Shown piece after piece: positions 17,655 through 42,822 of a stretch of 64,000 nt of DNA. Source of the stretch: a virus (Duplodnaviria; Caudoviricetes); IMG/VR virus record IMGVR_UViG_3300043432_000238, positions 15,333-79,332 of that record, one strand, 5' to 3'. The notes under the pieces were generated by a model, which saw only the letters and a list, made by a program, of their open reading frames with translations, was not told where the DNA came from and did no database searches. The translations under genes were made by a program, and so were the position numbers. Numbering within the stretch: the stretch's first letter is position 1; every line of letters begins with the position of its first letter.

Positions 17655-18232
17655 GCGACGACAAGCCCGGCGCCTGGAAAGAGGGCCTCGAGCCCAAGCA
17701 GGTCCGCTTCGTCGAGGAATATCTCGTCGACCTCAACGGCACGCAGGCGGCGATCCGGGCCGGCTATTCCGAGCACACCGCCAACCAGCTCGCCTACCAG
17801 CTCTTGCGCAAGCCGAAGGTCGCCGAAGCCGTCGCATTGGCGATGGCCGAAAGACCCGGCGTCACGCGCGCGCGGATCGTCGACGAGCTGGCCAGCATCG
17901 CCTTCGCCAATGCCGGGGATTATTTCGCCTGGGGGCCAGACGGCGTCACCGTGAAGCCAAGCGATGACCTGACGGAAGCCCAGCGCGGCGTCATTGCCGA
18001 GGTCAGCCAGACCGTCACCGAGAAGGGCGGCGCCATCCGCGTCAAGCTCTCGGATAAGCAGGCGGCGCTGGAGAAACTGGCGCGGGTGTTCGGCATGTTC
18101 TCCGACAAGGTCGAGCTGACCGGCAAGGGCGGCGAGCCGCTGGCGCCGGAGACCGGCACGCGCGATCTGGCCAGAGCGGTCTTGGATATTCTGCGCACGG
18201 CGCAAGTCAAGAAAGAGGGCGACGGCCAATGA
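17651..18232 (+). CDS. terS: Terminase small subunit
   Basis: KQVRFVEEYLVDLNGTQAAIRAGYS...DKQAALEKL...KVELTGKGG. Confidence 0.93.
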   Translation: MSDDKPGAWKEGLEPKQVRFVEEYLVDLNGTQAAIRAGYSEHTANQLAYQLLRKPKVAEAVALAMAERPGVTRARIVDELASIAFANAGDYFAWGPDGVTVKPSDDLTEAQRGVIAEVSQTVTEKGGAIRVKLSDKQAALEKLARVFGMFSDKVELTGKGGEPLAPETGTRDLARAVLDILRTAQVKKEGDGQ

Positions 18233-18603
18233 TGCAGCGCATGCGATTCGACATCAATACCGATACTGGAACGCAGGGCGATACCGGTCCGGTTTTTTCC
18301 GGCATCATTCGCCAGATGGGCTGGGCACCAACGGTTAGCGATACTGGTGCCGCACTCTACGTAGCGTTAATCAACGCTCAAGGCGATACTTCCGGCGGTC
18401 TCACGCTCGTCAATGATGAGGACAGCCTTGGTGCCAGCTTTCTTCGCGCACCGGTCATCCCCGGTACTTCACCCGATGGTTTTGACACTGGTGTAGACCA
18501 GTATTTTCCGCCGGTCGCTGCGGGTGGCCGGCTTCGTATCAAAGTAACACCAGCAAGCGCTGGAGTCGCCGGCAAGCTGTACGTCTGGGCTGACAACGGC
18601 TGA
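18229..18603 (+). CDS. Putative virion protein, DTG-rich
   Basis: 124 aa, beta-rich, 4 DTG plus 1 DTS; coupled to terS. Confidence 0.75.
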   Translation: MMQRMRFDINTDTGTQGDTGPVFSGIIRQMGWAPTVSDTGAALYVALINAQGDTSGGLTLVNDEDSLGASFLRAPVIPGTSPDGFDTGVDQYFPPVAAGGRLRIKVTPASAGVAGKLYVWADNG

Positions 18604-18634
18604 TAACAGACATCTCCTGGGAGATGATTGAATT

Positions 18635-19021: not shown

Positions 19022-19062
19022 TCTCCCGTCTTTCTTACACGCATACAAAAGACTAACCATTA

Positions 19063-19623: not shown

Positions 19624-20872
19624 GATCGAGGCCAAGCGGACGCCGTGCTCCAAGACCTTCGATCTCGGCGACGGCCGGCACCGGCTAGATGTCGGCCAGC
19701 AGCCAAAGCATTATGAGCAGGACGGCCGGCTGCTCGACATCGACCTGACCCCGGAGTTCGACGCCGTCCGCGGCTGCCATGCGCTGCGCAACTGCCCCTA
19801 TGCGCTGCAGGTCGCCCACGATGCGCCGGCCCATGTCTACAATTCCCGCAGCGGCAAGCGTGTCTCGATCGAACTCGTCACTGAAGCCAGAGGCGCGCTC
19901 GCCGAGGGCGGCCTGTTCAAATGGGGTGAGGTCGGCCGCGACACCGATTACATCATCCAGCCACTCCCCGGCGGCTGCGCAACGCTGCTCGTGCTGAACA
20001 CGCCATCTGCGCCGCGTGAGTGGTCATGGCGCGTCCAGGGTGACATGGACCTGATCGTGCCGTTGGTCGGACAGGATAGCGCCAGGCGGCGTCTGGAGCT
20101 GATCGAGACGCGCGACCCTGCCGCCTGCATCATCGCGGTCCGATGGACTGGCCGCACGATGGTGCCGCGAGAGCTCAGGCGGCAGAAGCAAACCGTCTGG
20201 ACGGATGACGTCACCTGGCCGGTGGTCATTGACCCAACGGTCAACGAGAACATCGCCGCCAATGGTGACGACGTGTGGTCTTACTGGAAAAACAACGGGG
20301 CAACATTCAGTTCCTTCAATGCGTATCCGCGATCATACCTTTACGCGGGCAGGGCCAACGCAGCTCGAAGCTATGCAGGATTGCGTTTCCAGACGATCGC
20401 AATTCCGGCCGGTTCTACCGTCAACTCGGCGACATTGACGATCCGCGTCACGGGCGTCACCGGCAGTCCCAATATCAATATATTTGGCAACGCTGTTGAC
20501 GATGCGGCAGCTTTCACCTCGCCGGCCAACCGCATCAAGGCCATGACCAAGACTTCGGCTTCGGTGAACAAGACATCCTGGACGAATGGTGCTGATAACG
20601 CCATTACGGTTACGAGCATCATTTCGGAACTGCTTGGAAGGGCCGGCTGGGCCTCCAATAACGACGTCGCGCTCGGGTTTTTCAACAATAGCGGCGCTAG
20701 CGTGAACTTCGTGAAATTCGCCGCGCTTGAGCACGCGACGCTCACCGAGGCCCGCCTTTCAATCGACTACACGGCAGGCGGCGGTGGCGGCGGAACGGTT
20801 CTCGACCACTACGCCGACAAGGAATTCCAGAGCAGCCGCTTCGTCAAACCGAGGTTCCTGATCCGGCAATGA
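19616..20872 (+). CDS. Protein with an RHS-type N-terminal region and a C-terminal DNRLRE-like carbohydrate-binding domain
   Basis: KRTPCSKTFDLGDG...PKHYE...IDLT; IDPTV...LYAG...AGLRFQTIAIPAGSTVNSATLTIRV. Confidence 0.65.
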   Translation: MREIEAKRTPCSKTFDLGDGRHRLDVGQQPKHYEQDGRLLDIDLTPEFDAVRGCHALRNCPYALQVAHDAPAHVYNSRSGKRVSIELVTEARGALAEGGLFKWGEVGRDTDYIIQPLPGGCATLLVLNTPSAPREWSWRVQGDMDLIVPLVGQDSARRRLELIETRDPAACIIAVRWTGRTMVPRELRRQKQTVWTDDVTWPVVIDPTVNENIAANGDDVWSYWKNNGATFSSFNAYPRSYLYAGRANAARSYAGLRFQTIAIPAGSTVNSATLTIRVTGVTGSPNINIFGNAVDDAAAFTSPANRIKAMTKTSASVNKTSWTNGADNAITVTSIISELLGRAGWASNNDVALGFFNNSGASVNFVKFAALEHATLTEARLSIDYTAGGGGGGTVLDHYADKEFQSSRFVKPRFLIRQ

Positions 20873-22029
20873 CCATCAATTTCGGCAAGCGCAACGGCGG
20901 CGCGCTGACGGCGGCCTCTCCCGGCGACACGCTCTACATCCCGCTGAACTTCTACAACGACAGCGGTGCGAGCATCAGCATCGGCTCATCGCTCGCCGTC
21001 ACCGATATCGAGGTGTTCAAGAACGGCGGCGTCGCCCAGCGTGCGACCGACAGCGGCTATGCGATCCTCGGCGACACCGGTAATTTCGATGAGCGGATCG
21101 GCTTCAAGGGCATCTCGATCTCGCTGTTCAACACGGCCGACGATCCAAGCTTCTATGCGGTAGGGTCAAGCTACTGGGTGGCGATCGACAGCGTCACGGT
21201 CGATGCGCGCACGGTGCGCTTTTTCCCGGCGGTGTTCGAGATCGGCGAGCCGCGCGCCAATGTCGTGCAGGTGAACGGCGACACCGGCGCCGCCGACGTG
21301 CTGCAGAAATTTGCCGGTACGGCTGGCACCTTGTCCCCGACCGGCGGCCTCGATACCGGTTCCGTCGACAACAACAGCTATCTGACGGCCGATACCAAGC
21401 GCATGAGCGGCGACACGGGAGCCGCCGACGTGCTCAGGCAATTTGCCGCGACCAATGGCACACTATCGCCCACGGGCGAGCTGGATACGGGATCGGTCGC
21501 CAACAATTCCTATCTGCCGGGAAATGTGATCCGCTGGCTCGGTACCGCCGCCGCCGCGCCGACCTTGGCGGGCGTTCCGAAGGTAGAAGTTTCGTCCTTC
21601 GCCGATACGGGCATTCAGGACCGGCTCAACAAGATCGCATCTGACACGGACACCGGCATCAAGGACGGCGTGTGGGATAGCGCGACACGGACGCTGACAG
21701 CCAATACCAACCTGTCCGGCCTGCAAGTCAGCGTCACTGCTTTCTCCGACACTGGCGTCAACGACCGATTGGCGAAGATTCTGGCGGATACCGACACGGG
21801 CATCCAATCCAGCGTCAACGTCACCAGCTTTGCCGATACCGGCGTCAATCAGCGGCTTTCCGCGATTGCAACGGAAGTCGCCACCGTCGATACGGCGACC
21901 AGCGCCATCAAGGCCAAGACCGACAGCCTGACCTTTACCGTGGCTGGCAACGTCGACGCCAATATCCAGCGCGTCAACGACGTTGCCGTCTCGGGCACTG
22001 GCGCGGCTGGCGACGAGTGGGGACCATGA
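20869..22029 (+). CDS. Fibre-like virion protein with internal repeats and 10 DTG motifs
   Basis: Two 44-aa-period repeats and three FxDTG repeats; C-terminal NIQRVNDVAVSGTGAAGDEWGP. Confidence 0.75.
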   Translation: MTINFGKRNGGALTAASPGDTLYIPLNFYNDSGASISIGSSLAVTDIEVFKNGGVAQRATDSGYAILGDTGNFDERIGFKGISISLFNTADDPSFYAVGSSYWVAIDSVTVDARTVRFFPAVFEIGEPRANVVQVNGDTGAADVLQKFAGTAGTLSPTGGLDTGSVDNNSYLTADTKRMSGDTGAADVLRQFAATNGTLSPTGELDTGSVANNSYLPGNVIRWLGTAAAAPTLAGVPKVEVSSFADTGIQDRLNKIASDTDTGIKDGVWDSATRTLTANTNLSGLQVSVTAFSDTGVNDRLAKILADTDTGIQSSVNVTSFADTGVNQRLSAIATEVATVDTATSAIKAKTDSLTFTVAGNVDANIQRVNDVAVSGTGAAGDEWGP

Positions 22030-22250: not shown

Positions 22251-22251
22251 C

Positions 22252-23122: not shown

Positions 23123-23159
23123 GCACTAAGCAATCGGCACAAACTAAGGACGTTTCTCT

Positions 23160-24038
23160 ATGACCTTCAGCATTCTGAAAGGCATTCACCGCCGTGCCTT
23201 GGGGCTCGGCAATGCGGGCGAGGTGGTCGCCCGCCACGGCGTGGTCGTCGGTGGCGACGACAAGCCGGCTATCTATCTTTCTGGTCCCGATACCGTGGCC
23301 TTGTTCGAGGACTTCACGGGACTGCAAGCCGGTGACACCGGCGAGCTGACGCTCCGCTATGGCCCCTCTCAGCTCATTATCGGTTTTTCCGACACGGGAC
23401 AGATCGTGCCTCGGCAAGGGCCCGTCGCTCCAGCCTCAGCACTCGCCAATGGCGTGTTTCGCCTGACGTCGTCCGCGACGTCGACGCAAACGCCCATCGG
23501 CGGCGCGCAGAGCCTGAACACGCCTGCGATCTGGAAGGCGAACCAGGGCCAGTTGTCGCAACCCTACGCAAGGCCGCTGCATTTCGGCGTTCGGCTGAAG
23601 ACGAACACGCTTGCCGGAAATAGCCTGTTTGTCGGCTTCACGGATTCTGGCGGTACCGAGATCGCCGCTTACGATACTGGTGGCGGCATCCTCACCCCAG
23701 CCGATGATTATGCCGGCTTCATCTGGTCAGGCGAAGGCGGTGCCACCCAGCAGGCTTATCGGGCCGTGACAGGCAAGGCCGGTGTGGACCAGTCCGCGAC
23801 GACCGGCGTCACGCCGACGGCCGGCGTCTACGACGTGCTCGAAGTCGAAGTCAGCCCGGATGGCGCCGTCGCTAGCTTCTTCATCAACGGCAAGTCCGTG
23901 GCGCAGATCACATCGGCGGCGCTCACTCCGACTGTAGCGCTCGGTGCCGGCGTATGGCGAGCCAACACGGACGGGGCGGCCGATGCCATCGATATCGACT
24001 GGATCAATGTCGCCGCGCCTCGGGATACCGGCACTTGA
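23160..24038 (+). CDS. Putative virion protein (lectin/jelly-roll-like), 4 DTG
   Basis: LFEDFTG...FGVRLKT...LEVEVSPDGAVASFFINGKSV...IDIDWI; beta-rich. Confidence 0.7.
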   Translation: MTFSILKGIHRRALGLGNAGEVVARHGVVVGGDDKPAIYLSGPDTVALFEDFTGLQAGDTGELTLRYGPSQLIIGFSDTGQIVPRQGPVAPASALANGVFRLTSSATSTQTPIGGAQSLNTPAIWKANQGQLSQPYARPLHFGVRLKTNTLAGNSLFVGFTDSGGTEIAAYDTGGGILTPADDYAGFIWSGEGGATQQAYRAVTGKAGVDQSATTGVTPTAGVYDVLEVEVSPDGAVASFFINGKSVAQITSAALTPTVALGAGVWRANTDGAADAIDIDWINVAAPRDTGT

Positions 24039-24054
24039 TCGGGTCAGGCCGCTA

Positions 24055-24678
24055 ATGTTGGACGCGATCATCGACGAAACGGCCGGCAGCCCCTCCCTGC
24101 CGGCCTCCACCCAAGTCAAGCCCACCGGCATCGCTATCCTCGGCTCGCATCCCCAGACCGTGGCGATGGCCCCCTTCGACAAGGCCGACTGGCTCATCTA
24201 TGCCTGCTCGCCTCACAATATCGAACTACGCACCTTGCCGCGCTGGGACCAGTGGTTCGAGGTCCACTTGCCCGTCCAGGACAAGACGCGTTCCTATCAC
24301 TATCTGCGCGGGCTCGAGGAACAGGCTCGCCAGAAGGAGGCGCGCGGCGAAGAACCCGTGATCTGGATGCGGGACAAGCTGGCCCTGCCGCATTTCCCGT
24401 GGGCGAACCCATATCCGGAAGCAGAGATGAAGCGGCTGTTCTGCCCGTTTCTATTCTCCTCCTCGATCGCCTTCATGCTGGCCAAGGCCATCACCGATTG
24501 CGAGGCGCAAGGGCTCAAGCAGATCGGCCTGTGGGGCATCCTGCAGCGCGGCCAGGGCGAGTATGAGAAGCAGCGCCCGGGCACGCAGTATTTCCTCTGG
24601 GAGGCGACGCGGCGCGGCATCAAGGTGCTGGCGGCGCCGGAGAGCGGTCTATTCGAGATCCCGCCGGAGGATTTCTGA
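24055..24678 (+). CDS. Maf/DUF115-like (GT29-fold-like) putative transferase
   Basis: IAILGSHP...WLIYAC...WFEVH...SSSIAFMLAKAI...KQIGLWGI...EYEKQRP...RRGIKV. Confidence 0.5.
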   Translation: MLDAIIDETAGSPSLPASTQVKPTGIAILGSHPQTVAMAPFDKADWLIYACSPHNIELRTLPRWDQWFEVHLPVQDKTRSYHYLRGLEEQARQKEARGEEPVIWMRDKLALPHFPWANPYPEAEMKRLFCPFLFSSSIAFMLAKAITDCEAQGLKQIGLWGILQRGQGEYEKQRPGTQYFLWEATRRGIKVLAAPESGLFEIPPEDF

Positions 24679-24683
24679 TCCAG

Positions 24684-24800: not shown

Positions 24801-25385
24801 ATGCTCTCCGTCACCGGTTATGGGTCGAAGATCATCGAGGAGCTGAAGCCGCTGCTGCCGGAAGGCGAGCAGATCGTCGCCTCGGCATGCGAGGGGCCGG
24901 TGCTGGAAGAAGCGCGCCGCTTCGTGCTCTGCGCCGGGCTCCTGCGTCCGGCACGGCTCGCCATGCAGACGCCGGAGGAAACCGCCGAGGCGATGGAGGT
25001 GAACGTCTTCAAGCCGATCCGGCTTTGCGAGCACATCCTCAAGCGCTTCGACGATGCCCGGATCTGCGTCGTCGGCAGCGAATCCGCCTTCACCTGGTCC
25101 TATGACGACGCCTATGCGGCGGCGAAGGTGGCGCTGCACCGCTATGTCGAGACCCGCAAGCTGACGCCGAAACAGCAGCTGATCTGCGTGGCGCCTTCGA
25201 TCATCGGCGATTGCGGGATGACGACGCGGCGCACCGACCTGGAGAACCTGGAGCGGCGCCGGCAGGAGCATCCGAAACGCCGCTTTCTCAAGGCCGCCGA
25301 AGTTGCGCGGCTCATTCATTTCCTGCTCTACGTTGACGAGGGCTATCTCTCGGGGCAGGTGATCCGGATGAATGGCGGGGTCTGA
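24801..25385 (+). CDS. SDR-family NAD(P)-dependent oxidoreductase
   Basis: VTGYGS, LCAG, VNV, GS, YAAAK catalytic motif, YLSGQVIRMNGG. Confidence 0.88.
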   Translation: MLSVTGYGSKIIEELKPLLPEGEQIVASACEGPVLEEARRFVLCAGLLRPARLAMQTPEETAEAMEVNVFKPIRLCEHILKRFDDARICVVGSESAFTWSYDDAYAAAKVALHRYVETRKLTPKQQLICVAPSIIGDCGMTTRRTDLENLERRRQEHPKRRFLKAAEVARLIHFLLYVDEGYLSGQVIRMNGGV

Positions 25386-25388
25386 CGA

Positions 25389-26099
25389 ATGCTTTCCGTC
25401 TGCTGCTTTCTCTGGGACGATCCTTCCCGCGAGCGCGACTACACCTTCGGCGAGGGCCATGTCGTCACGCTGCGCAACATGGTGGCGCGCCACCTACACC
25501 TGCCGCATGAGTTCGTCTGCGTCACCGACCGCACGCATATCGCCGAAGGCATCCGCTGTGTGCCGCTCGACGACCGCGTCCATGTCCCAGGCACGTGCGG
25601 GCGCAAGCTGACGATCTGGGCGCCGGACGCCGGGACACGCATCGGCACGCGCATCCTCAGTCTTGATCTCGACATGGTTATCGTCGACGACATCACGCCG
25701 CTGGTCGACCGGCCGGAGGACGTTGTGATGTTCCGCAATCCGAACTATGTCGAGGGCGGCCGGCGCGCCTTCTATCAGGGCTCGATCCAGCTCATGACGG
25801 CGAACAGCCGGCCGAAAGTATGGAACGTCCGTTTCCATCCGCACGCGCCGATGATCGTCAATCGCCGGTTCGGCGGCCACGAGCAGGCATGGCTCTCAGA
25901 GATGCTTCCCTGGACGGAGGCGCACTGGAGCGACGCCGACGGCATCTACGGCGCCGGCCGCGTCGGCGACTGGACGGATAAGACTGTGGTCGCCGAGCTG
26001 CCGCCTGGCGCGCGCATCGTGGTATTCCCCGGCAACCGCGAGCCGGGCCAGCCGCATGTGAAAGAGAAGTTTCCCTGGATCACGGAGCACTATGCTTGA
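25389..26099 (+). CDS. GT-A glycosyltransferase, paralog 1
   Basis: LRNMVARHLHLPHEFVCVTD; ILSLDLDMVIVDDI (DxD); YQGSIQL; HEQAWL; IVVFPG. Confidence 0.85.
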   Translation: MLSVCCFLWDDPSRERDYTFGEGHVVTLRNMVARHLHLPHEFVCVTDRTHIAEGIRCVPLDDRVHVPGTCGRKLTIWAPDAGTRIGTRILSLDLDMVIVDDITPLVDRPEDVVMFRNPNYVEGGRRAFYQGSIQLMTANSRPKVWNVRFHPHAPMIVNRRFGGHEQAWLSEMLPWTEAHWSDADGIYGAGRVGDWTDKTVVAELPPGARIVVFPGNREPGQPHVKEKFPWITEHYA

Positions 26100-26707
26100 C
26101 TGACGCCTTGATGGAATACCTGCCGCCCGCCCCGCCGATGCCCGCCCTCGCACATGGCGCCGGCAAATATGTCGGCCCCGTCGCCGCGAACTACGACGCC
26201 AAGCGCGAGCAGTCGCCGAAATGGCTCGCCGAGCAGGCCATCATCGAAGGCTGGCTCGATGAGATGCCGGAAGGCAGCGTCATCCTCGACGCCCCCGTCG
26301 GCACCGGACGTTTCCTGGAGGTCTACGCCCGCCGCAAGTTCGACCTCTACGGCCTCGACCTCTCCGCCGATATGCTGAACCAATGTGCGGCCAAGATGCC
26401 GCTCGGCTTCAGCGCCAAGCTGGGCCAGGGAAATGTCCTGAGATGCGGCTTGCCCGACGCCCATGTCGACGTCGCCGTCAACTGCCGCATCACCCGCTGG
26501 CTGTCGCCGGACGAGAACATCCTGCTCATGAAAGAGATGCAGCGCGTCTGCCGCAAGCGCATCATCTGGACGGCGCGCGTCGAGGGACACATCCACGCCC
26601 GCACCGTCGAGCTGTTCAAGAGCGCGCTCCATGGCTGGCAGATCACCCGCAATGTCGCCGGCTATGAGCCGGCCTACCGCATCCTGATGGCAGAACCGTC
26701 ATGCTGA
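26096..26707 (+). CDS. Class I SAM-dependent methyltransferase
   Basis: ILDAPVGTGRF...GLDLSADML...GNVL. Confidence 0.9.
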   Translation: MTDALMEYLPPAPPMPALAHGAGKYVGPVAANYDAKREQSPKWLAEQAIIEGWLDEMPEGSVILDAPVGTGRFLEVYARRKFDLYGLDLSADMLNQCAAKMPLGFSAKLGQGNVLRCGLPDAHVDVAVNCRITRWLSPDENILLMKEMQRVCRKRIIWTARVEGHIHARTVELFKSALHGWQITRNVAGYEPAYRILMAEPSC

Positions 26708-27420
26708 CCGTCGCCACCTATTTCTGGCAGCCTGATAGCGGCAGCAAGTTCGCCGCGCCCTATACGCCTGACGATGTACGCCGGCTGCAGCGCGCCGTGG
26801 CGAAGAACCTGACGCTGCCGCATCGCTTCGCCGTCATCACCGACCGACCGCAATTGTTCGCTGATGATGCCGCGATCACCGCCATTCCGATCGACTGGAC
26901 AACGCACGTCCCGCGCACCTGCTATGTCCGGCTGATGACGTTTCATCCCGATGGCGCGGCGATCTTCGGCGAGCGCATCCTGCAGCTTGATCTCGACACG
27001 ATGATCGTCGGCAATCTCGACGCCATCGCCTCTCGCGAGGAGGATCTCATTCTCTGGCGGAATTCCTGCTGGGGGCCTGCCTTCCCGAGCCGCGCGTTCT
27101 ACAACACGTCCGTGCTGTCGCACCGCTGCGGCACCGAGCCCTATATCTGGCGTCAGTGCGCGCGAATGACCGAAGCGGCGTGCAGGGCCCTGAAGGATGA
27201 CCAATGGTATCTTTCCGCCGTCGTCGGCAAGGAAGCGCCCTATTTCGATGGCGCCCGTGACGGCGTTTATCGCATCGCCCGCGAGGACACGCCGGGTTCC
27301 GGCGTCTGGGGGGCGCTGCCTAAAAACGCGCGGATCGTGACCTTCCCCGGATCTGAAGGCAAGGCTGACAACCCACGCGTTCGGGCTGGCAATCCGTGGA
27401 TCAGGGAGTTTGCAGCGTGA
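26701..27420 (+). CDS. GT-A glycosyltransferase, paralog 2
   Basis: LQRAVAKNLTLPHRFAVITD; ILQLDLDTMIVGNL; YNTSVL; DDQWYL; IVTFPG. Confidence 0.85.
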   Translation: MLTVATYFWQPDSGSKFAAPYTPDDVRRLQRAVAKNLTLPHRFAVITDRPQLFADDAAITAIPIDWTTHVPRTCYVRLMTFHPDGAAIFGERILQLDLDTMIVGNLDAIASREEDLILWRNSCWGPAFPSRAFYNTSVLSHRCGTEPYIWRQCARMTEAACRALKDDQWYLSAVVGKEAPYFDGARDGVYRIAREDTPGSGVWGALPKNARIVTFPGSEGKADNPRVRAGNPWIREFAA

Positions 27421-28238
27421 CCGCGGACGAACTCAACGTCGCTATCGCGCAGATCGCTACCCTGCCGCGCGTGCGTTTCGAGGTCGGCCTGGGCGAAAGC
27501 GCGGACAACTGGCTCCGGAAGAAGCATGCCCAGCCCGGCGATGTGCATGAGCCGGCGACGCTGGCTGCGTTCCTCGCCGCCTTCAAGCGCGGCGGCATCA
27601 AGCAGATTTTCGACGTCGGCGCGCTCTACGGCTATTTCACGCTGTTCGCGCTGAGCCTGTTCGACGAGGCCGAGGTCACCGCCTTCGAGATGCATCCCGG
27701 CACCGTCGGTCCGCTCTATTACAACGTCGCCCCCTATGCCGGCGTCGTCGCTGCGGCGATCTCCGATCAATGCCGCCGGAAGCAAAAGATCTGGATCTCC
27801 GGCTTCAATATCTTCGAGGAGCCGACCGGCGGCTGGGAGATGCTGGAGACGATCCCCGGCGCGATGAAGGAGCGCGGCCCCGGCAATCGCGGGCGCGGCT
27901 TCGCCGAGGTCGACTTCATCACGCTGGATGCCTGGTGCGCCGACCATCCGGCGCCGGACCTGATCAAGATCGACGTCGAGGGTTTTCAGGCCAAGGCCGT
28001 CCGCGGCGGCCTCAACACCATCGCCGCGCACAAGCCGATGATCGTCATCGAGCTGCACGATCCGGAGAAGCTGGCGCGCTTCGGCACCACCAATGCTCAA
28101 ACCGTGAAGCCGCTGTTCGATCTCGGCTACAAGGCATTCTGGTGCCCGAACTTCCGGGACAAAAATGCGCGCTTCGAACCGGTCGAGGCGATGGATGAGC
28201 GGCATGAGAAGCTCTGCATCATGGTGTTTGCGGTTTGA
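27417..28238 (+). CDS. FkbM-family methyltransferase
   Basis: IFDVGALYGYFT...AFEMHP...LDAW...PDLIKIDVEGFQ. Confidence 0.88.
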   Translation: MTADELNVAIAQIATLPRVRFEVGLGESADNWLRKKHAQPGDVHEPATLAAFLAAFKRGGIKQIFDVGALYGYFTLFALSLFDEAEVTAFEMHPGTVGPLYYNVAPYAGVVAAAISDQCRRKQKIWISGFNIFEEPTGGWEMLETIPGAMKERGPGNRGRGFAEVDFITLDAWCADHPAPDLIKIDVEGFQAKAVRGGLNTIAAHKPMIVIELHDPEKLARFGTTNAQTVKPLFDLGYKAFWCPNFRDKNARFEPVEAMDERHEKLCIMVFAV

Positions 28239-29062
28239 AGGGCATCGTCGAGGCTGAGGCGTTTCCGGCACCAGCCGCCGCGGCATTATTCGGCCCTGGC
28301 GTTGTCAGTGTCGAAGAGGTGCGTTGGTCTGCGACCAGCGGCGCAAGAGGCCGGTTTTGGACGGCAGTCTCTCCAGATGGCGTATTCTGGGTTTCCGACG
28401 GCGAAGACCGGATGGCAGCATTGCCAAAGCGCGCATTGCGGTTTCTGCGCTCCGGCATCGCCTCGCGCTGCAATGGTCTGGTTGATCGTTACCTGAAGGG
28501 AATCGTCCCCGTCGGCGAAGGCGATACCGTCGTCAACTTCGGCGCCAATATCGGCGAGGTCGCTGTCACACTTGCGAAGCGCGGCGCGCGCGTCATCGCG
28601 ATTGAGCCCGACCCGAATATCCTTCCGTTCCTCGCAGCCAACGCGGAAGGCAAGCGGATCGAGATCGCGCCAGTCGCGGCGTGGTATCTGGATGGTGATG
28701 TCGAGGTGCACATCGCGACGGACACCGCCGATACTTCGGTGTTCGAGCCCAAGCCAGGTCGCTCGACTTCTCGGATGTCGTTGCCATGCCGCACGATCGA
28801 CGGTATCGTCGCAGATCGCGGAATCGACCGTGTCCGCCTTATCGTTGGGGACGCTGAAGGCGCTGAGCCCGAGGTGCTCGCGGGCGCGTTCGCAACCCTG
28901 GCGATGACCGACTATGTCAGTATTTCCTGCAGCGATGAGCGCTGCGGTCAAACGACGATCGACACATGTGAGAGGATCTTGTGGAACAGCGGGTTTGAAA
29001 CCGTCCACCGCGAAAGCACAAAATTCTGCATACTGATTGGGAAAAACCGAAGGTCTGAATGA
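28235..29062 (+). CDS. FkbM-family methyltransferase
   Basis: VNFGANIGEV...IAIEPDP...TIDGI...LIVGDAEGAEPEVLAG. Confidence 0.85.
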   Translation: MKGIVEAEAFPAPAAAALFGPGVVSVEEVRWSATSGARGRFWTAVSPDGVFWVSDGEDRMAALPKRALRFLRSGIASRCNGLVDRYLKGIVPVGEGDTVVNFGANIGEVAVTLAKRGARVIAIEPDPNILPFLAANAEGKRIEIAPVAAWYLDGDVEVHIATDTADTSVFEPKPGRSTSRMSLPCRTIDGIVADRGIDRVRLIVGDAEGAEPEVLAGAFATLAMTDYVSISCSDERCGQTTIDTCERILWNSGFETVHRESTKFCILIGKNRRSE

Positions 29063-29388
29063 CGACTGTCAGCTACACATCGGAGGTCAATATCCTCGCC
29101 AAGACGGTGAAAGTCGAATGGGCTGGTCTTTCCGCAGGCGACGAAGGCCAGCCCTTTGATTGCACAGGCTTACGGCTTGCTTCGATCCAAGCTACCGGAG
29201 ATTTTGGCAGCGGTGGGAATGTGTACCTTCACGCCAGCGATGAGATTACGCCGACAAACTTTGGACGGTGGCAAAAAATCGAGCATGTCAGCATAGGCGA
29301 CGTGGATTTCACAATGTTCGGAGCGATCAAACCCGTTGCTGACGCCAATATCGCGAATGCGGGTGTCGCTCTCCTTTTCGCGCGGTGA
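29059..29388 (+). CDS. Small beta-sandwich-like protein, paralog 2 of 3
   Basis: VKVEWAGLSAGDEGQPFDCTGL...GDFGSGGNVYLHASD. Confidence 0.78.
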   Translation: MTTVSYTSEVNILAKTVKVEWAGLSAGDEGQPFDCTGLRLASIQATGDFGSGGNVYLHASDEITPTNFGRWQKIEHVSIGDVDFTMFGAIKPVADANIANAGVALLFAR

Positions 29389-30110: not shown

Positions 30111-30111
30111 C

Positions 30112-30435: not shown

Positions 30436-30437
30436 AC

Positions 30438-31112: not shown

Positions 31113-31494
31113 GGACGCGGTTCGCGTCTATCGCTGGCACATCGAGAAGCGCTCCGGGCTCCGCATTAAGGCGGGACTGCCGACGGACGGCTGGAAGCGC
31201 AGTCTCGACGACTACCTCCAATCGGCGAGCGCGCTCGCCGGCTGCATGCGCCGGCAGGGCTTCTTTCGCGGCGGTGCCATTCCCGTCGATCCGGACGGCG
31301 AGCTCCTGGGCGGCGCTCATCGTTTGGCCTGCGCACTGGCGCTCGGCATTGCCGAAGTGCCGGTGACCCGCGATCAGCGCCGGGTGTGGGCGCCGGCTTG
31401 GGGTGAAGCGTGGTTCCGGGACAATGAGATGGCCGTCGAGGATATCGTCAGGCTCAGGCGTGACTGGCTGGCTTTGTATTCGGGCCAGCATTGA
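31009..31494 (+). CDS. ParB/sulfiredoxin-like domain protein (start uncertain)
   Basis: RFDLAVKW...YRWHI...GF...IPV...LLGGAHRLACALALGI. Confidence 0.65.
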   Translation: MICSTLPTGSLVTPRRFDLAVKWRLFRHLLHGGDEDAVRVYRWHIEKRSGLRIKAGLPTDGWKRSLDDYLQSASALAGCMRRQGFFRGGAIPVDPDGELLGGAHRLACALALGIAEVPVTRDQRRVWAPAWGEAWFRDNEMAVEDIVRLRRDWLALYSGQH

Positions 31495-33116
31495 CATCAG
31501 CCACACTCGCCGACCTTCAGGCCATTGAGCGCCTGATCGAAGGACTGCCGCCGGAAAGCCGCAAGGCGCTCGAAAGCATCCCCGCGATCAGGGAACGGCT
31601 CGGCAAGTGGCGGCCAAACCCGGGGCCGCAAGAGCAGGCTTATTATTCGAAGGCCGATTGCCTGCTCTATGGCGGCCAGCCCGGCGGCGGCAAGACCTCG
31701 CTGATTTTGGGCCTGGCCTTCAACGAGCATAAGCGCACGCTGATCATGCGCCGCGAATATGGCGGCCTCGACCGCATCATCGAGGATGCGCTGAAGATCC
31801 ATGGCAGCCGCGATGGCTTCAACGGATCGCCGCCGCCCCGGCTGAAAATCGACGGTGACCGCGTGATTTATTTCCGCGCGGCGCACCGCGTCGGCGATGA
31901 GCAGGGCACCATGGGTCAGGGCCGCGATCTGCTCGCCATCGACGAGGCGACGCAATTCGCCGAGAGCCAGGTCCGCTTCATGATGGGCTGGGTTCGCTCG
32001 GAAGATCCGCGCCAGCGCTGCCGCACGGTGCTCGCCACCAATCCGCCGCTCCAAGCCGAGGGTTTGTGGGTGGTCAAGATGTTCGCGCCCTGGATCGACG
32101 AGCGCTACCCAAGGCCGGCGCTGCCCGGCGAATTGCGCTGGGTGGTGTCGGACGCGGAAGGCAACGACGAATGGGTCGAGGGAGCGGATGACACGCGCGA
32201 GGTGGCCGGCAAGGTCGTCCGGCCGACCTCGCGGACCTATATTCCGGCGTCCACGAAGGACAACCCCTATTACGTCGACAGCGACTATGAGCGCCAGCTC
32301 GACGCCATGCCGGAGCCGTTCCGCTCATTGCTCATGGGCGGCTTCAAGACGCAGTTCCGCGACGACGACAACCAGCTCATCCCCACCGTCTGGGTGAAGG
32401 CGGCGCAGGCCAGGTGGAAGGCCGACGGCTGGAAAGAGTTCGATATGACGGCCATGGCGCTCGATCCTGCGGGCGGCGGTCCCGACAAGGGCGTGCTCGC
32501 CTGGCGTCATGGAGGCTGGTACGCGCCGCTCGTCGTCATCCGCGCGGATCAGGATGGCGATAGCGACGATCCGAACGCATCCGCAGAACGAGCGATGCTT
32601 CGTGCTTCGAAAATGGCCGCCAGCGTCATCATGCATCGCCGCGCGAGCGCTCCGGTAATCGTCGATATGGGCGGCGGCTATGGCGGCGATGTCTCGGCGC
32701 GGCTGAAAGAAAACGGCATCGCCTATCAAAGCTTCAACGGCGCCGAGAAATCGACCTTCATCGGCAAGGAGGGCGTCCGCTATGTCAATCGCCGCGCTCT
32801 CGCCTGGTGGCAGTTTCGTGACGAGCTCAATCCGGATCGCGAGGGCGGCTCGCTGATCGCCTTGCCGAACGATCCTGAGCTCCTCGCCGACCTGACCGCG
32901 CCGCGGTTCGAGATGACGCGGGCCGGCGTCAAGATCGAGGACAAGGACGAGATCAAGAAACGGCTGGGCCGCTCGCCGGACAAGGGCGACGCTGCGGTGA
33001 TGTGTCTCGCACCCGGTAACAAGGCCGTGAAACGCGTCGAGGCAATGCTTTCGCGCGGCGGCAAGCCGCTTCAGGCCAAGCTCGGCTATGCCAGCGCAAA
33101 AAGGGGAAAACGATAG
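31491..33116 (+). CDS. terL: Terminase large subunit
   Basis: LYGGQPGGGKT Walker A, LAIDEATQF Walker B, LATNPP, nuclease ALDPAGGGPD, SPDKGDAAVM. Confidence 0.95.
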   Translation: MTSATLADLQAIERLIEGLPPESRKALESIPAIRERLGKWRPNPGPQEQAYYSKADCLLYGGQPGGGKTSLILGLAFNEHKRTLIMRREYGGLDRIIEDALKIHGSRDGFNGSPPPRLKIDGDRVIYFRAAHRVGDEQGTMGQGRDLLAIDEATQFAESQVRFMMGWVRSEDPRQRCRTVLATNPPLQAEGLWVVKMFAPWIDERYPRPALPGELRWVVSDAEGNDEWVEGADDTREVAGKVVRPTSRTYIPASTKDNPYYVDSDYERQLDAMPEPFRSLLMGGFKTQFRDDDNQLIPTVWVKAAQARWKADGWKEFDMTAMALDPAGGGPDKGVLAWRHGGWYAPLVVIRADQDGDSDDPNASAERAMLRASKMAASVIMHRRASAPVIVDMGGGYGGDVSARLKENGIAYQSFNGAEKSTFIGKEGVRYVNRRALAWWQFRDELNPDREGGSLIALPNDPELLADLTAPRFEMTRAGVKIEDKDEIKKRLGRSPDKGDAAVMCLAPGNKAVKRVEAMLSRGGKPLQAKLGYASAKRGKR

Positions 33117-37986: not shown

Positions 37987-38262
37987 ATGGCAAACTATCA
38001 GTCCGCCAACTTCAACCTTCGCAGCCAGTCGATCGCCGGCCGCAAGGAATGGGTCTACGAGGACACTGGACCGATCGCCGACGTGATCGCCTCCGGCTTC
38101 GTCTCCGACGGAGCGCAGAAGGGCGCAAGCGTGGGGGATTTCGTGAAATATTACGATACCTCGCGCGGCATCTGGTACGGCCTTCGGGTGAGTGCCCGAA
38201 GCGATACCGGCGCCACCCAGCTCACGCTCGACGGCCAGGTGATCATCGGCGATACGAGCTGA
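37987..38262 (+). CDS. Putative capsid decoration/cement protein (2 DTG, 2 DTS)
   Basis: 91 aa directly after the capsid gene with an AGGAGG RBS, ahead of a terminator. Confidence 0.7.
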   Translation: MANYQSANFNLRSQSIAGRKEWVYEDTGPIADVIASGFVSDGAQKGASVGDFVKYYDTSRGIWYGLRVSARSDTGATQLTLDGQVIIGDTS

Positions 38263-38848: not shown

Positions 38849-38870
38849 GCGCACATAGAGGAGGCGGGTA

Positions 38871-39512
38871 GTGACGACCAAACTGGCGATCTTCAACGCC
38901 GCGCTCGACGAGCTCGGCGAGACCAATGTCTCGGACACCGGCGAGGCGATCGAATCCGCGCGCGTTCTGGCGCGCCGTTACGACCGCGTGGTCGCAGACT
39001 GCCTGTCGGCCGGCTCCTGGAACTTTGCCATGGAGACCATCCAGGCCGATGCCGATACCGGCGTCACGCCGTCCTTCGGCTACGCCAAGGTCTTCGCCAA
39101 GCCATCGGACTGGGTGAACACCGTGGCGATCTCGGCCGACCCGTATTTCACCTTCCCGCTGACGCAATATGTCGACGACGTCAATTTCTGGTCGTCGGAT
39201 TATACGCCGATCTATGTGCGCTACGTCTCGAACGATACCGGGCTCGGCCTCGAGCTGGCGCGCTGGACACCGGCCTTCATCCGGTTCGTCGAGCTGGAGC
39301 TCGCCGATCGCTGCTGCATCAAGATCACGCAGAGCGAGACGACGAAGGAGCGGGTCGCCAAAGACCTGAAGAAGGCGAGGACCAAGGCGCTGGCTCAGGA
39401 TGCCCTCAACGAGCCGCAGCCGAAATTTCCCCCGCCCGGCTCCTGGTCGATGTCGCGTTCCGGCCGCATCGGCCTGCGCGACCGCGGCAACCGCAACTCG
39501 CTGATCGGCTGA
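38871..39512 (+). CDS. Tail tubular protein A / adaptor (3 DTG)
   Basis: IFNAALDELG...YDRVVADCL...WNFA...FGY...PSD; position before tail tube B. Confidence 0.85.
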   Translation: MTTKLAIFNAALDELGETNVSDTGEAIESARVLARRYDRVVADCLSAGSWNFAMETIQADADTGVTPSFGYAKVFAKPSDWVNTVAISADPYFTFPLTQYVDDVNFWSSDYTPIYVRYVSNDTGLGLELARWTPAFIRFVELELADRCCIKITQSETTKERVAKDLKKARTKALAQDALNEPQPKFPPPGSWSMSRSGRIGLRDRGNRNSLIG

Positions 39513-39516
39513 TCCC

Positions 39517-42500
39517 GTGGCGAAGCAGAACGTCCCGCTGGTATCCTTCAATCGGGGGATCATCTCGCCGAAGGCGCTGGCCCGTGTCGATCTCGACCGC
39601 ACGCGGCTGTCCGCCGAGGTCATGCGCAACTGGCTCGCCAAGACGCAAGGGGCGATGACCATCCGTCCGGGCACGAAGTATTTCGGCTCATCGCTGAACG
39701 ATACCGGCGCGGCCTGGATCGAATTCGCCGCCGCGACCGACGATGTGGCGCTCCTGGAAGTGACGCCTCTGGCTATGCGCGTCTGGCTGGGCGATGACCC
39801 GCATGCTCTGGCGCTGCTGTCGCGCCCGCATGTCGACACCACGCTCAGCCTTTCCGATACCGGCTGGGAAGATGCCTCGACCGGCGGCACCTCTTCGACG
39901 AGTTCGACCGACGCCATCCCGACCATGACGGGTGCGACCACCAATGGCGTTACGATCAGCGCTTCGTCGGAGGACGCCTCAATTGGAGCGTCAGCCTGGA
40001 AGGTCGGCGACGACAACATCAGTAGTCTTTGGGTCGATACCGGCTTCTTCGAAGGCGGCACGCTGCCATCCTGGCTGAAGGTCGATTTTGGCGCGGGCAA
40101 TACCAAGACTATTGCCGCTTATTCGATCCGTGCCCCGGGCAACTCCAATGCGCTCGACAACGTGCCGCGCTCCTGGGACTTTCAGGGCAATGATGTCGAT
40201 ACCGGGTCCGATGCGTCCTGGACCACGCTCGACACCGGCGGCGACCAGACCGACTGGTCTGTCAGCGAGAAGCGGATCTTTACCGTCGGGTCTCCGCAAG
40301 CCTTCCGCTTCTATCGCTGGAACATCAAGGAAATCACCGGCGGCGGCGATGCGAGTGGCGAGATAGCCCTACCAGAAGTCGAATTATTCCCCTCTATCGT
40401 CAATACCAAGGCGGCCTTTTCCTCTGGCCGTTTGACGATGAACGCCACCGCCATCGGCGCTTTGGCCAGGGTGCGCAAGCGCGTCATTGTCGACACGGGT
40501 GATGCGGGCGTCGAGCATGGCCTCGCGATCAATATCGCACGCGGTCCCGTGACATTCCGCGTGGGGTCGAGCGTCGGTGATGACGATTACGTCAGCGAGA
40601 CGGTGCTCGGCACCGGCTATCACAACCTCGCCTTTACACCCGCCAGCGATTTCTATGTCACGCTGCAGACCGACGCCATTGTCAACCGGCTCATAAACTC
40701 GCTGGCCATCAGCGACACCGGCACGGTCTCGATAACCTCGCCGTGGGAAGCGGGGGATCTCGACAACATCCGTTTCGACCAGTCGGCCGACGTGATCTAT
40801 GTCGACTGCGCCGGCGTTCACCCAGCCAAGATTGAGCGCCGCGGCACTGGCCGGTCCTGGTCCGTCGTCCGTTATGAACCCAACAACGGCCCATTTCTTA
40901 CCTCGCCTTCCAGCGCGGCCAAACTTTCGGTGAGCTTTTATTACGGCAACGTCACGCTGAGTTCCGACGTACCCTTCTTCAAGCCTGGCCATGTCGGTGC
41001 GCTGATCCGGATCTTCCACGAAACGCAGGGAGGCCAATGGATACTCGGCACGCTCGACGCCAAGACGGACGCGGTTGCGGTCACCGGAATTTCCGATACG
41101 GGCACGACGCCTCCCACGGATTCGGAACGGGCCATTACTTTTAACGTTGCCGGCAGCGGCGTATTTGCGACGACCATTGAGAAATCGGTCGATGGTGCCG
41201 AATTCGGCTTCAAGGCCATCTCCTCATCCATCGGCACTGCGACCGATACCGGTACACGTTCGCTTACGATCATCGACAAGGACGATAATATCAAGGTCTG
41301 GTATCGTATCCGTGTCAGCTCTTACACATCGGGCGTTGTGTTGGTCGCTATCACCTATGATGGCGGCGGCGGTACTACCGGCATCGGACGCATCACCAGC
41401 TACAACTCCAACACTTCCGTCGCCATGGAAGTGCTCTCGCGCTTCGCCGAACTCGCTTCATCGGACAATTGGCAGGAAGGCTATTGGTCGGATGCGCGCG
41501 GCTTTCCGAGCGCCGTCGCCCTGCATAGCGGACGACTGGCTCATGCGGGCGGTTCCACGCTGTTCCTCTCGGTCTCCGACGATTACGAGAATTTCGACGA
41601 CACCACGGTCGGCGATGCCGGGCCGATCATCCGTACGCTCGGCTCGGGGCCGGTCGACGCCATCTATTTCCTGATCTCGCTGATCCGGCTGGTGATCGGC
41701 ACCACGGGCTCGGAGCTGTCGCTGCGCTCATCCTCGCTGGACGAGCCGGTGACGCCGTCGAACTCGGCGGCGCGGTCGTTCTCGACCCACGGCTCGGCCA
41801 ATATCCGCGCATTGAAACTCGACAGCCGCGGCATCCAACTGCAACGCTCGAAGCAGCGCATCTTCATGGTCGGCTTCGGTGCGACCAGCCAGACGCTCGG
41901 CGACTATGAAGGCGTCGAGCTGACGCTGTTCGTCCCCGATCTGCTGAAAGCCGGCGTCGTCTCGCTCGCCATCCAGCGCATGCCGGACACCCGCCTGCAC
42001 TGCGTGCTTGCCGACGGCACCGTCGGCATCCTGACCTATGAACCGAACGAGGAGGTGATCTGCTGGCAGTTCTGGACCACCGAGGGCTCCGTGGAGAAGG
42101 CTATGGTGCTGCCCGGCGTCAGCGAGGACGCGGTCTATTACCACATCAACCGCACCGTCAACGGTCACACGAAGCGCTTCCTGGAGAAATGGGCCAAGGA
42201 GACCGAATGCCTCGGCGATAGCGGCCTCTGCTGGCTCGCCGACTGCGCCGTCTCCACCACCGACACCGGCCGGACGAAATCTCTGGCGGTGCCGCACCTC
42301 ATCGGCGAGCGGGTCATCGCCTGGGGCGATCTCGACACCGGCTCCATGCCGCTGGTCGACCTCTCGCCGGACACCGATACCGGCGGCGCGCAGCGCACCT
42401 ATCTGGTCGACACCGGCGGCGACATCACACTGGGCCTCACCGAAGGCGTGCATCACGGCGTCGCCGGCTTGCCCTATAGCGCCGCCTGGAAAAGCGCCAA

Positions 42501-42822
42501 GCTCGCCTATGCCGCCCAGCTCGGCACCGCGCTGACCATGAAGAAGCGCGTGCCCCAGCTCGGCATGGTGCTTTACCAGACGCACAATAACGGCCTGTTC
42601 ACCGGCTCCGACACCGGCATGGACAAGGTGCAACCCCTGCCGCGCACGCTCGATAAGGGCGGCGTCGTCGATCCGGACAAGATTTATCCGGTCATCGACG
42701 AGGCCCCCTTCGCCTCGCCCGGCGGCTGGGACTCGGATTCGCGCGTGACGCTTCGGGCGAAAGCGCCCAGGCCCTGTACCGTGCTCGCCCTCGTGCCTGC
42801 GGTCGACACCAATGAGCAATAG
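39517..42822 (+). CDS. Tail tubular protein B / nozzle with an inserted F5/8-type C (discoidin) domain; 14 DTG
   Basis: SFNRGIISP...QGAMTIRPGT, FDQSADV, GFPSAVALHSGRL; insert WLKVDFG...YSIR...PRSWDFQG...WTTLD...FRFYRWNI. Confidence 0.88.
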   Translation: MAKQNVPLVSFNRGIISPKALARVDLDRTRLSAEVMRNWLAKTQGAMTIRPGTKYFGSSLNDTGAAWIEFAAATDDVALLEVTPLAMRVWLGDDPHALALLSRPHVDTTLSLSDTGWEDASTGGTSSTSSTDAIPTMTGATTNGVTISASSEDASIGASAWKVGDDNISSLWVDTGFFEGGTLPSWLKVDFGAGNTKTIAAYSIRAPGNSNALDNVPRSWDFQGNDVDTGSDASWTTLDTGGDQTDWSVSEKRIFTVGSPQAFRFYRWNIKEITGGGDASGEIALPEVELFPSIVNTKAAFSSGRLTMNATAIGALARVRKRVIVDTGDAGVEHGLAINIARGPVTFRVGSSVGDDDYVSETVLGTGYHNLAFTPASDFYVTLQTDAIVNRLINSLAISDTGTVSITSPWEAGDLDNIRFDQSADVIYVDCAGVHPAKIERRGTGRSWSVVRYEPNNGPFLTSPSSAAKLSVSFYYGNVTLSSDVPFFKPGHVGALIRIFHETQGGQWILGTLDAKTDAVAVTGISDTGTTPPTDSERAITFNVAGSGVFATTIEKSVDGAEFGFKAISSSIGTATDTGTRSLTIIDKDDNIKVWYRIRVSSYTSGVVLVAITYDGGGGTTGIGRITSYNSNTSVAMEVLSRFAELASSDNWQEGYWSDARGFPSAVALHSGRLAHAGGSTLFLSVSDDYENFDDTTVGDAGPIIRTLGSGPVDAIYFLISLIRLVIGTTGSELSLRSSSLDEPVTPSNSAARSFSTHGSANIRALKLDSRGIQLQRSKQRIFMVGFGATSQTLGDYEGVELTLFVPDLLKAGVVSLAIQRMPDTRLHCVLADGTVGILTYEPNEEVICWQFWTTEGSVEKAMVLPGVSEDAVYYHINRTVNGHTKRFLEKWAKETECLGDSGLCWLADCAVSTTDTGRTKSLAVPHLIGERVIAWGDLDTGSMPLVDLSPDTDTGGAQRTYLVDTGGDITLGLTEGVHHGVAGLPYSAAWKSAKLAYAAQLGTALTMKKRVPQLGMVLYQTHNNGLFTGSDTGMDKVQPLPRTLDKGGVVDPDKIYPVIDEAPFASPGGWDSDSRVTLRAKAPRPCTVLALVPAVDTNEQ

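Follow-up and report, generated by a model that had tools for sequence, protein, structure and literature searches.

An exact Asp-Thr-Gly tag in outer virion proteins of an uncultured phage clade, co-inherited with a cassette of transferase-like genes

Three-residue codes that direct sugars onto proteins, such as Asn-X-Ser/Thr and the Bacteroidota motif D-(S/T)-(A/I/L/V/M/T), have to our knowledge been known until now from cellular systems and not from phages. The Bacteroidota motif acts on exported proteins outside the cytoplasm; in the cytoplasm, soluble transferases such as HMW1C/NGT (Asn-X-Ser/Thr) and the autotransporter heptosyltransferases (BAHT) decorate adhesins at many sites with short repeated signals, and Maf enzymes place nonulosonic acids onto Ser/Thr of a surface filament protein. 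We know of no strict sequon for flagellin glycosylation, nor of a strict tripeptide signal for the virion glycosylation of mycobacteriophages, whose glycans have reportedly been demonstrated experimentally on the major capsid protein (MCP). Phage-encoded virion glycosylation is reported for the mycobacteriophages Che8 and Rita (Freeman et al. 2023, as cited in PMC11256854), and the general O-glycosylation of Bacteroidota is described as using a three-residue motif (PMC8698959). Here we analyse the tripeptide Asp-Thr-Gly (DTG), which is strongly over-represented in six proteins of an uncultured tailed phage, together with a cassette of transferase-like genes, in a window of 64,000 nucleotides (bases 15333-79332 of the single 79,332-bp virus record IMGVR_UViG_3300043432_000238). 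Proteins are named by the first base of their gene within the window.

A peptide-level tag and its confinement to one clade

A first-pass annotation, made from the letters of the window, had proposed that the threonine of DTG is the acceptor of a phage-encoded virion glycosylation system. Its hand counts proved exact: 4 DTG in protein 18229, 10 in 20869, 4 in 23160, 2 in the post-capsid protein 37987, 3 in tail tubular protein A and 14 in tail tubular protein B, the nozzle. These 37 copies compare with 1.76 expected from composition (~20 times chance; Poisson P ~2e-35), and 20,000 within-protein shuffles averaged 1.78 and never exceeded 8. The annotation was equally accurate on the proteins that it had described as free or nearly free of the motif: the 3947-aa protein has 1 DTG (1.03 expected), the portal, the terminase large subunit (TerL), the 810-aa protein and the MCP have none, and the MCP has 2 DSG. 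Throughout the rest of the 79-kb genome DTG occurs at or below chance, and a scan of all tripeptides in the proteome placed it by far at the top of over-representation (40 vs 6.5, P 8e-19).

The corresponding nucleotide pattern GAYACNGG is present 44 times on the + strand and twice on the - strand, with 37 of the 38 + strand copies in the six genes in frame 0. Because the enrichment is found only in frame, selection acts at the level of the peptide. Codons vary, as the annotation had remarked: GAT 19 and GAC 18 for Asp; ACC 24, ACG 7 and ACT 6 for Thr; GGC 22, GGT 8, GGA 5 and GGG 2 for Gly. A mild preference for ACC accompanies this variation (24 of the 37 tag threonines vs 79 of the 177 other threonines in the same proteins), and GAT, GGT and GGA are also somewhat more frequent at the tag.

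The three residues act as one unit, since 37 of the 51 DT dipeptides in the six proteins continue with G and 37 of the 52 TG dipeptides follow D. Flanking preferences are weak: hydrophobic residues at -5 and -2, Ser/Asn/Thr/Gly at -1, and Thr/Ala after the Gly. Part of the count in the 386-aa protein (20869) derives from a 117-nt internal duplication with 75% identity, and the sites in tail tubular proteins A and B lie in contexts unrelated to each other. DTG is a peptide-level tag whose enrichment is limited to virion proteins of the outer type: those of the tail, the fibre-like ones and the small ones associated with the head. The D-T/S-G signature of aspartic proteases, which occurs once or twice in a pepsin or retropepsin fold, was considered and rejected as a likeness in letters only: here a beta-propeller nozzle carries 14 copies and an adaptor 3, and searches with the DTG proteins gave no protease family match.

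We compared the nozzle with its homologues. Each of the 120 nearest (56-73% identity) has 10-20 DTG; about 14 alignment columns are DTG in more than 90% of these sequences, with DSG the sole frequent substitute, and the remaining sites are found in 5-40% of sequences, frequently within insertions. A set of 150 nozzle representatives, reaching down to 35% identity, falls into two groups with either 7-18 or 0-3 DTG. On a nozzle tree computed after masking all D[TS]G, the DTG-rich sequences group together as a clade (support 98), and one change accounts for the trait. The sister sequences closest to this clade, P0127/P0131/P0132 and P0134/P0137, share 43-48% identity with the query nozzle and have 0 DTG: at the conserved columns they show DAA/NAF, SFA/TFA, AAG/SAG, ITA/YTA or DFT/DFN, and some columns are gapped, the tag lying within a clade-specific insertion. 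The three DTG of tail tubular protein A are likewise conserved in the clade, and relatives mostly have ALT/SLT, DPS/DED and DVD/DDA in their place; in G015, a DTG-poor genome, one of these sites is DTG. Relatives of the 91-aa post-capsid protein carry 3-4 DTG and end in GDTS or GDTG.

In the IMG/VR database, nearly all loci with a nozzle at least 50% identical to ours carry the DTG trio (2-4 copies in the post-capsid protein, 2-3 in tail tubular protein A, 10-20 in the nozzle) at GC contents of 50-70%; a few short contigs of the clade lack the post-capsid open reading frame (ORF). No DTG enrichment was seen in over 100 loci from the wider family, whose GC contents span 41-70%. Sister nozzles were scanned in IMG/VR with an alignment query, the single queries P0127 and P0134 having given no match. 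The annotation had expected tag and cassette to occur together; homologues from cassette-free phages have 0-3 DTG per nozzle in ~130 representatives and more than 100 loci, and are not DTG-rich. DTG enrichment is a trait of the clade that is due to neither fold nor base composition, sister phages of equal GC content having other residues or gaps at the tag positions.

Several further observations were made among the relatives. Three relatives of the 386-aa protein have an extreme DTG density (L211:1049-3091, 32 DTG in 681 aa; L293:1-2769, 35 in a 923-aa partial ORF; L296:6087-8057, 29 in 657 aa). A 5.1-kb IMG/VR contig (L029:518-4874) encodes a nozzle of the DTG-poor sister type, 50-54% identical to the sisters, with 3 DTG in variable loops or insertions at positions unused by the clade; its tail tubular protein A has 0 DTG, and its post-capsid protein clearly belongs with the DTG-bearing ones (3 DTG, 44% identical to that of the window). 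This contig is possibly a mosaic or an early stage. About one in five nozzle homologues exceeds the others by 200-250 aa and contains lectin-type inserts (PF13385 Laminin_G_3, PF00754 F5/8 type C, PF22633). The DTG-poor relative G028, the record behind L094, encodes at 45534-46763 a 410-aa protein with the tandem tetrapeptide (A/D)-Q-V-(G/R/W); DQV was rejected as a dispersed tag of that phage, being one tandem tetrapeptide repeat.

Motif strictness was assessed in six complete or near-complete DTG-rich genomes of the clade, comparing DTG in target proteins with its five permuted tripeptides. The target proteins contain 205 DTG, and four of the permutations number 5-10 each; the fifth, GDT, reaches 38 because Gly often precedes the tag. 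Near variants are scarce (ETG 1, NTG 1, DTA 5, DTS 5, DSG 23), so that Asp and Gly are required and Thr is favoured over Ser. The two DSG of the MCP were rejected as tag sites: they are unconserved in the clade and therefore attributable to chance. For the remaining proteins, we picked genes with weighting by GC content at third codon positions and applied matched truncation for DTG and the permuted tripeptides. Non-target proteins of the six rich genomes hold 8 DTG vs a permutation mean of 23.4, a depletion of ~3-fold (Poisson P 2e-4); those of four DTG-poor relatives hold 14 vs 16.2. These counts are suggestive of DTG being avoided in the clade's non-target proteins, and such purging is expected for a tag read by a trans-acting factor, not for a passive structural motif.

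The annotation had also expected the sites to map to exposed loops. In the AlphaFold2 model of the nozzle, 11 of the 14 DTG lie in predicted loops, and against a background of 54% this preference is marginal (P 0.05). The loop-lying threonines are mostly 2-5 residues past a beta-strand, and Thr 239, 577 and 916 are in strands or at strand ends. Loops, C-termini and insertions as locations would fit accessible positions.

This placement bears on the view that DTG is left unmodified and serves as a structural or binding micro-motif, for a metal, the host surface or another part of the virion, with the enzymes unrelated to it. Asp-x-Gly turns are common in loops after beta-strands, where the sites mostly are, and such a motif would agree with the positional conservation of most sites, with an untagged MCP and with the occurrence elsewhere of the GT-A module without DTG, described below. 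Sisters of the same fold, however, have unrelated residues at these positions (Phe, Ile or Ala, for example), the tag is also found at extreme C-termini and in new insertions, its three residues are held strictly across unrelated contexts, and a passive motif does not predict the depletion in the clade's other proteins. We regard an unmodified micro-motif as unlikely, though far from negligible.

Co-inheritance of the tag with a gene cassette

We searched five DTG-rich and four DTG-poor complete genomes with the proteins of this phage (tblastn). The 292-aa DTG protein 23160 and proteins 25389, 26096, 30438 and 30946 are present in 5/5 rich and 0/4 poor genomes. Protein 23944 is likewise present in 5/5 rich genomes and, among the poor, has a distant homologue in G015 alone (34% over 181 residues); the 91-aa post-capsid protein was matched in 4/5 rich genomes and in none of the poor. 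Variable between genomes are two extra transferase paralogues, two FkbM methyltransferases, an SDR (short-chain dehydrogenase/reductase)-like protein and several small ORFs, and where a genome has a single transferase, its best match is 25389 (47-50% identity). The glycosyltransferase (GT) family phrog_1962 was found in this genome and in 5/5 rich records of at least 90% completeness; among the DTG-poor records searched, 28 in all and 12 of them of that completeness, none contained it. In IMG/VR, 14/14 loci with a 23944 homologue of at least 40% identity have DTG-rich ORFs beside it; these loci share the synteny of the clade and therefore represent no independent origin. In every orthologue of the 292-aa protein, ...RDTG is followed by a single last residue.

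The cassette is inserted between the terminase small subunit (TerS) and TerL genes on the strand of the virion genes, and adjoining genes in it share a few bases, head to tail, so that it is most likely expressed with the virion genes. The connection drawn in the first-pass annotation between the tag and these enzymes thus holds as adjacency and co-inheritance, both resting on a single evolutionary origin.

The GT-A family of the cassette is widespread in phages, with 271 matches in IMG/VR. Tetraselmis viridis virus S20, a siphovirus (NC_020840.1, L016:26950-32533), has a homologue with 31% identity in a block between its capsid and head-closure genes, along with a methyltransferase, two genes annotated as sialyltransferases and another glycosyl transferase. 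A distant relative with a T7-like tail (L219:7279-17301; nozzle 33% identical) carries the GT, a Methyltransf_25 gene and the 182-aa gene between capsid and tail tubular protein A. At L209 and L214 the GT, methyltransferase, P-loop and 182-aa genes stand together, with the other clade genes lacking and no DTG. From this distribution, the GT/methyltransferase/182-aa set, with the P-loop gene in some loci, looks like a mobile module. Since GT-A homologues occur without DTG, possession of the GT-A enzyme is not enough to bring about the tag. Should the cassette modify the tag, DTG would be read either by the version of one of these enzymes peculiar to the clade or by the Maf-fold protein 23944.

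Three tripeptides near GT homologues were considered as further dispersed tags and rejected as tandem repeats: ADT (L258:940-3825), DSK (L259:8681-10411) and GKD (L226:2262-3656). At these loci a GT homologue lies within a few kb of fibre-like proteins with tandem repeats, of 21 aa with ADT(S/L)T in L258, of 14 aa with ADSK in L259 and collagen-like with GKD in L226.

Phage glycosyltransferases, methyltransferases and P-loop kinases often target DNA or host surface glycans. The cassette might therefore act on another substrate, such as phage DNA or host envelope glycans, leaving DTG to be read by a host system or by another phage protein, and the L209, L214 and L219 loci, with their GT, methyltransferase and 182-aa genes and no DTG seen, would suit such a role. 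Yet the genome contains no thymidylate-synthase-like (hydroxymethylase) gene, which argues mildly against glycosylation of hydroxymethyl bases in DNA; the module lies in late or structural blocks in three contexts (here, in L219 and in S20); and the DTG proteins are encoded within the same block. We see a slim chance that the substrate lies elsewhere.

Cassette enzymes and the case for a glycan

The features of the window are listed in Table 1. On the + strand, TerS is followed by the 13-kb block (18229-31494), TerL, portal, a scaffold-like protein and MCP, then by the 91-aa protein, a 170-aa protein and tail tubular proteins A and B, and beyond these by internal virion proteins, the 810-aa protein and the 3947-aa protein. 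The phage has a GC content of ~62% and is contained in five DNA sequencing runs, from freshwater, landfill and sediment metagenomes, with no RNA run listed, which has no bearing on expression; no cultured phage is close, the top tblastn identity being 23-29%. Most of the 8 family relatives in genome records belong to Alphaproteobacteria (Bauldia, Hyphomicrobiales, Xanthobacter), and these are all DTG-poor; single relatives were found in an Anaerolineaceae metagenome-assembled genome (MAG) or record and in a Flavipsychrobacter MAG. Tail tubular protein B has a confident AlphaFold2 model (pLDDT 89.6, pTM 0.81) that matches T7-like nozzles in Foldseek (Carin-1 8ck1_A, E 2e-40; T7 gp12 7boy, E 6e-16; also the LME-1 nozzle). 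The 124-aa protein had no match in Pfam and PHROG searches, and a profile search of PDB with the alignment of the 292-aa protein gave none.

Table 1. Features of the block and of flanking virion genes, in window coordinates
Feature	Coordinates	Strand	Basis or remark
Terminase small subunit (TerS), left block border	17627..18232	+	phrog_51 E 2.9e-36
124-aa DTG protein, 4 DTG	18229..18603	+	homologues with 4-6 DTG in relatives
386-aa DTG protein, 10 DTG, repeat-bearing	20869..22029	+	probably fibre-like
292-aa DTG protein, 4 DTG, clade core	23160..24038	+	orthologues end ...RDTGx
GT42/Maf-fold (sialyltransferase-like, MptE-like) protein, core	23944..24678	+	predicted fold; true start probably ~residue 38-55
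SDR-family oxidoreductase-like protein, variable	24801..25385	+	PF13561 E 3e-11; in some relatives only
GT-A-like transferase, LDLD (DxD), core	25389..26099	+	phrog_1962 E 5.7e-10
S-adenosylmethionine (SAM)-dependent methyltransferase (Methyltransf_25), core	26096..26707	+	PF13649 E 4e-11
GT-A-like paralogue, variable	26701..27420	+	phrog_1962 E 1e-9; Atlas cluster 'Glycosyltransferase family protein'
FkbM-type methyltransferase, variable	27396..28238	+	PF05050 E 1.2e-13; absent in the 5 compared rich genomes, present in L215
FkbM-type methyltransferase, variable	28235..29062	+	PF05050 E 3.4e-9
GT-A-like paralogue, variable	29385..30110	+	phrog_1962 E 2.3e-10
P-loop (GPPGxGKSTL) kinase-like protein, core	30438..31112	+	AAA_18/AAA_33, best E 7e-6
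Conserved 182-aa protein, core	30946..31494	+	travels with GT, methyltransferase and, in some loci, P-loop gene
Terminase large subunit (TerL), right block border	31491..33116	+	phrog_979, phrog_2, E 1e-22
Major capsid protein (MCP)	37140-37973	+	phrog_3437
91-aa DTG protein directly after the MCP gene, 2 DTG	37987..38262	+	phrog_18004
Tail tubular protein A, 213 aa, 3 DTG	38871..39512	+	phrog_394 E 7e-31
Tail tubular protein B/nozzle, 1101 aa, 14 DTG	39517..42822	+	phrog_376 E 1.4e-124

The three GT paralogues of ~240 aa share an invariant L-D-L-D (D93, D95) across 8 aligned sequences. In the ESM Atlas they fall into a viral glycosyltransferase cluster, with GT8/Nucleotid_trans the nearest named family at 0.93-0.94; they matched no Pfam or NCBIfam family, and their profile found glycogenin alone in PDB, weakly (E ~0.8). 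Protein 23944 returned nothing in sequence searches, including Pfam searches with any of its 6 members, and an Atlas lead to PF01973 at 0.84 only. The core of its AlphaFold2 model (residues 57-240) is confident and resembles sialyltransferases: the best Foldseek match is CstII (E 4.7e-5, probability 1.0), VIA gave Z scores of 9.8 for CstII, 9.8 for CstI and 9.7 for the Maf protein 5mu5 (155 residues, root-mean-square deviation 3.9), and a Pasteurella sialyltransferase is matched as well. Its N-terminal GIAILGSHPxT may resemble the GNGPS nucleotide loop.

Among the other cassette products, the P-loop protein 30438 has weak nucleotide-kinase-like matches in 5/5 members (AAA_18, AAA_33, weak UMP-CMP kinase), and FkbM proteins are typical of sugar and polyketide O-methylation. 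The 182-aa protein was searched against Pfam and by profile against PDB with empty results; its invariant ...DP.GELL.G.HR.ACA.AL... (...LLGGAHR...) recalls the DGxHR of ParB/Srx, a likeness that those searches do not support. The SDR-like protein is only 194 aa long, matches its family profile from position 75 on and has a seemingly shortened N-terminal dinucleotide-binding segment; orthologues in relatives are of equal length, so this is not a frameshift peculiar to the present genome. The annotation had further suggested a possibly sulfated virion; the one match bearing on this idea is to Sulfotransfer_4, at E 0.096. A complex prediction of GT 25389 with 23944 (55-244) and the 91-aa protein scored 0.00, without controls, and weighs neither way.

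Any account has to explain a strict tag that is confined to one clade and both adjacent to and co-inherited with a set of enzyme genes. Our preferred reading, to which we give roughly an even chance, is that DTG would be a phage-encoded, cytoplasmic O-glycosylation sequon that receives a sugar on Thr. The fuller version, in which the clade evolved a strict D-T/S-G sequon at ~40 sites, read by a small soluble set of a DxD GT-A enzyme and a Maf/GT42-fold protein and purged elsewhere, is held more tentatively, at a little short of even.

Glycosylation could proceed as follows. The ancestor of the clade would have written DTG, with Ser tolerated, into the nozzle, the tail adaptor, the post-capsid protein and two or three fibre-like proteins whose genes adjoin those of the enzymes. 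In the host cytoplasm, at a late stage of infection, cassette enzymes would recognise the D-T-G turn, which usually follows directly on a beta-strand or sits at a C-terminus, and link a sugar to its Thr through the hydroxyl group. Of the two core transferase-like proteins, the DxD GT-A and the GT42/Maf-fold protein, one would initiate the glycan and the other lengthen it. Decoration would come from the core SAM methyltransferase and from the P-loop kinase-like protein, and the variable transferases, FkbM methyltransferases and SDR protein would make the glycan differ between phages. Three elements of this scheme are inferred: an action of the enzymes on the tag, a glycan as the modification, and the identity of the enzyme reading DTG.

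The same enzymes also admit a modification of DTG other than a glycan, such as Thr phosphorylation by the P-loop protein, methylation with SAM or another transfer, the transferases serving otherwise. A strict motif, a hydroxyl residue that is kept (T >> S) and off-target avoidance fit any enzymatic tag; the P-loop kinase-like protein and the methyltransferase belong to the clade core, and the GT42/Maf fold is common to pyrophosphokinases. Set against this, the P-loop protein matches families of small-molecule and nucleotide kinases rather than protein kinases, two transferase-like proteins are core as well, and the variable part of the cassette (GT paralogues, FkbM, SDR) resembles glycan tailoring. 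We consider a non-glycan modification improbable.

A number of points weigh against glycosylation of the tag. The MCP, the most exposed protein of all, is without DTG, and the loop preference of the nozzle sites is marginal. The tag and cassette arose once, so that their co-occurrence is one event and not a statistical association, and the clade differs from its sisters in many further genes and in genome size; moreover, G015 has its distant homologue of the Maf-fold gene while being DTG-poor. Compared directly, DTG-rich and DTG-poor genomes differ only marginally in off-target DTG (Fisher P 0.07), and the six rich ones are relatives of one another, which leaves avoidance only suggestive. Outside the clade, ~70 GT-bearing loci, many of them short, show no ORF with at least 3 DTG, S20 is without any enriched tripeptide, and the L219 nozzle is without the tag, in a record that is only 51% complete and in which no 23944 homologue was seen. 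As to the enzymes, the GT-A assignment is probable, resting on a PHROG name, the DxD motif and weak or lead-level matches; the fold of 23944 is shared with pyrophosphokinases (HPPK and TPK, Z 9.7; likewise the MptE type); and no nucleotide-sugar synthesis genes were recognised. The support for a glycan comes from sequences and models and is not chemical.

If the glycosylation reading is true, no earlier phage system would be known in which a sequon directs virion glycosylation, and phages would programme the glycosylation sites of their virions by a three-residue code. A full-text search of the literature, incomplete in coverage, found no description of a DTG tag or of a phage sequon. Such a system would account for the large group of unannotated transferase genes that recurs in structural modules of phages and would bear on how tails are masked or tuned towards host defences, proteases, antibodies and sticky environmental polymers. 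The minimal conserved set is small, with two transferase-like proteins, a methyltransferase and a kinase-like protein on a DTG tag; as a compact, portable pair of tag and writer it would be a possible tool for site-specific cytoplasmic glycosylation in bacteria. Even if the modification is not a sugar, a strict tag present ~40 times in outer virion proteins and avoided elsewhere would imply an undescribed reader.

Comparison with described systems

Tail tubular proteins A and B belong to the same families as T7 gp11 and gp12 (PDB 6r21, 7boy; closest solved structure Carin-1 8ck1), and differ from the other members, close sisters included, which have no DTG enrichment. With Bacteroidota O-glycosylation the phage tag shares a three-residue signal that begins with Asp-Ser/Thr and occurs on many unrelated proteins. 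Its third residue, however, is strictly Gly (DTG 205, DTA 5, DTS 5), virions assemble in the cytoplasm, and the family relatives are mostly prophages of Alphaproteobacteria; the Bacteroidota sequon invoked in the first-pass annotation therefore serves as an analogy, membership failing on the third residue.

The predicted fold of 23944 is like that of Maf and GT42 enzymes (PDB 5mu5, 1ro7, 2p2v; Z 9.7-9.8, 155-168 residues aligned). Unlike them, the protein has an identity of only 12-19%, no Pfam match and no TPR or flagellin-binding parts. HMW1C/NGT and BAHT differ in their enzyme families (GT41/BAHT) and acceptor atoms, and are not phage-encoded.

The mycobacteriophage systems are alike in principle only. 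Both concern a tailed phage with its own GT-like genes beside the virion genes, and in both the virion proteins are the proposed acceptors. Unlike in the mycobacteriophages, the capsid here is untagged, and the candidate acceptors are tail, fibre-like and small head-associated proteins that carry an exact D-T-G at ~40 sites per genome.

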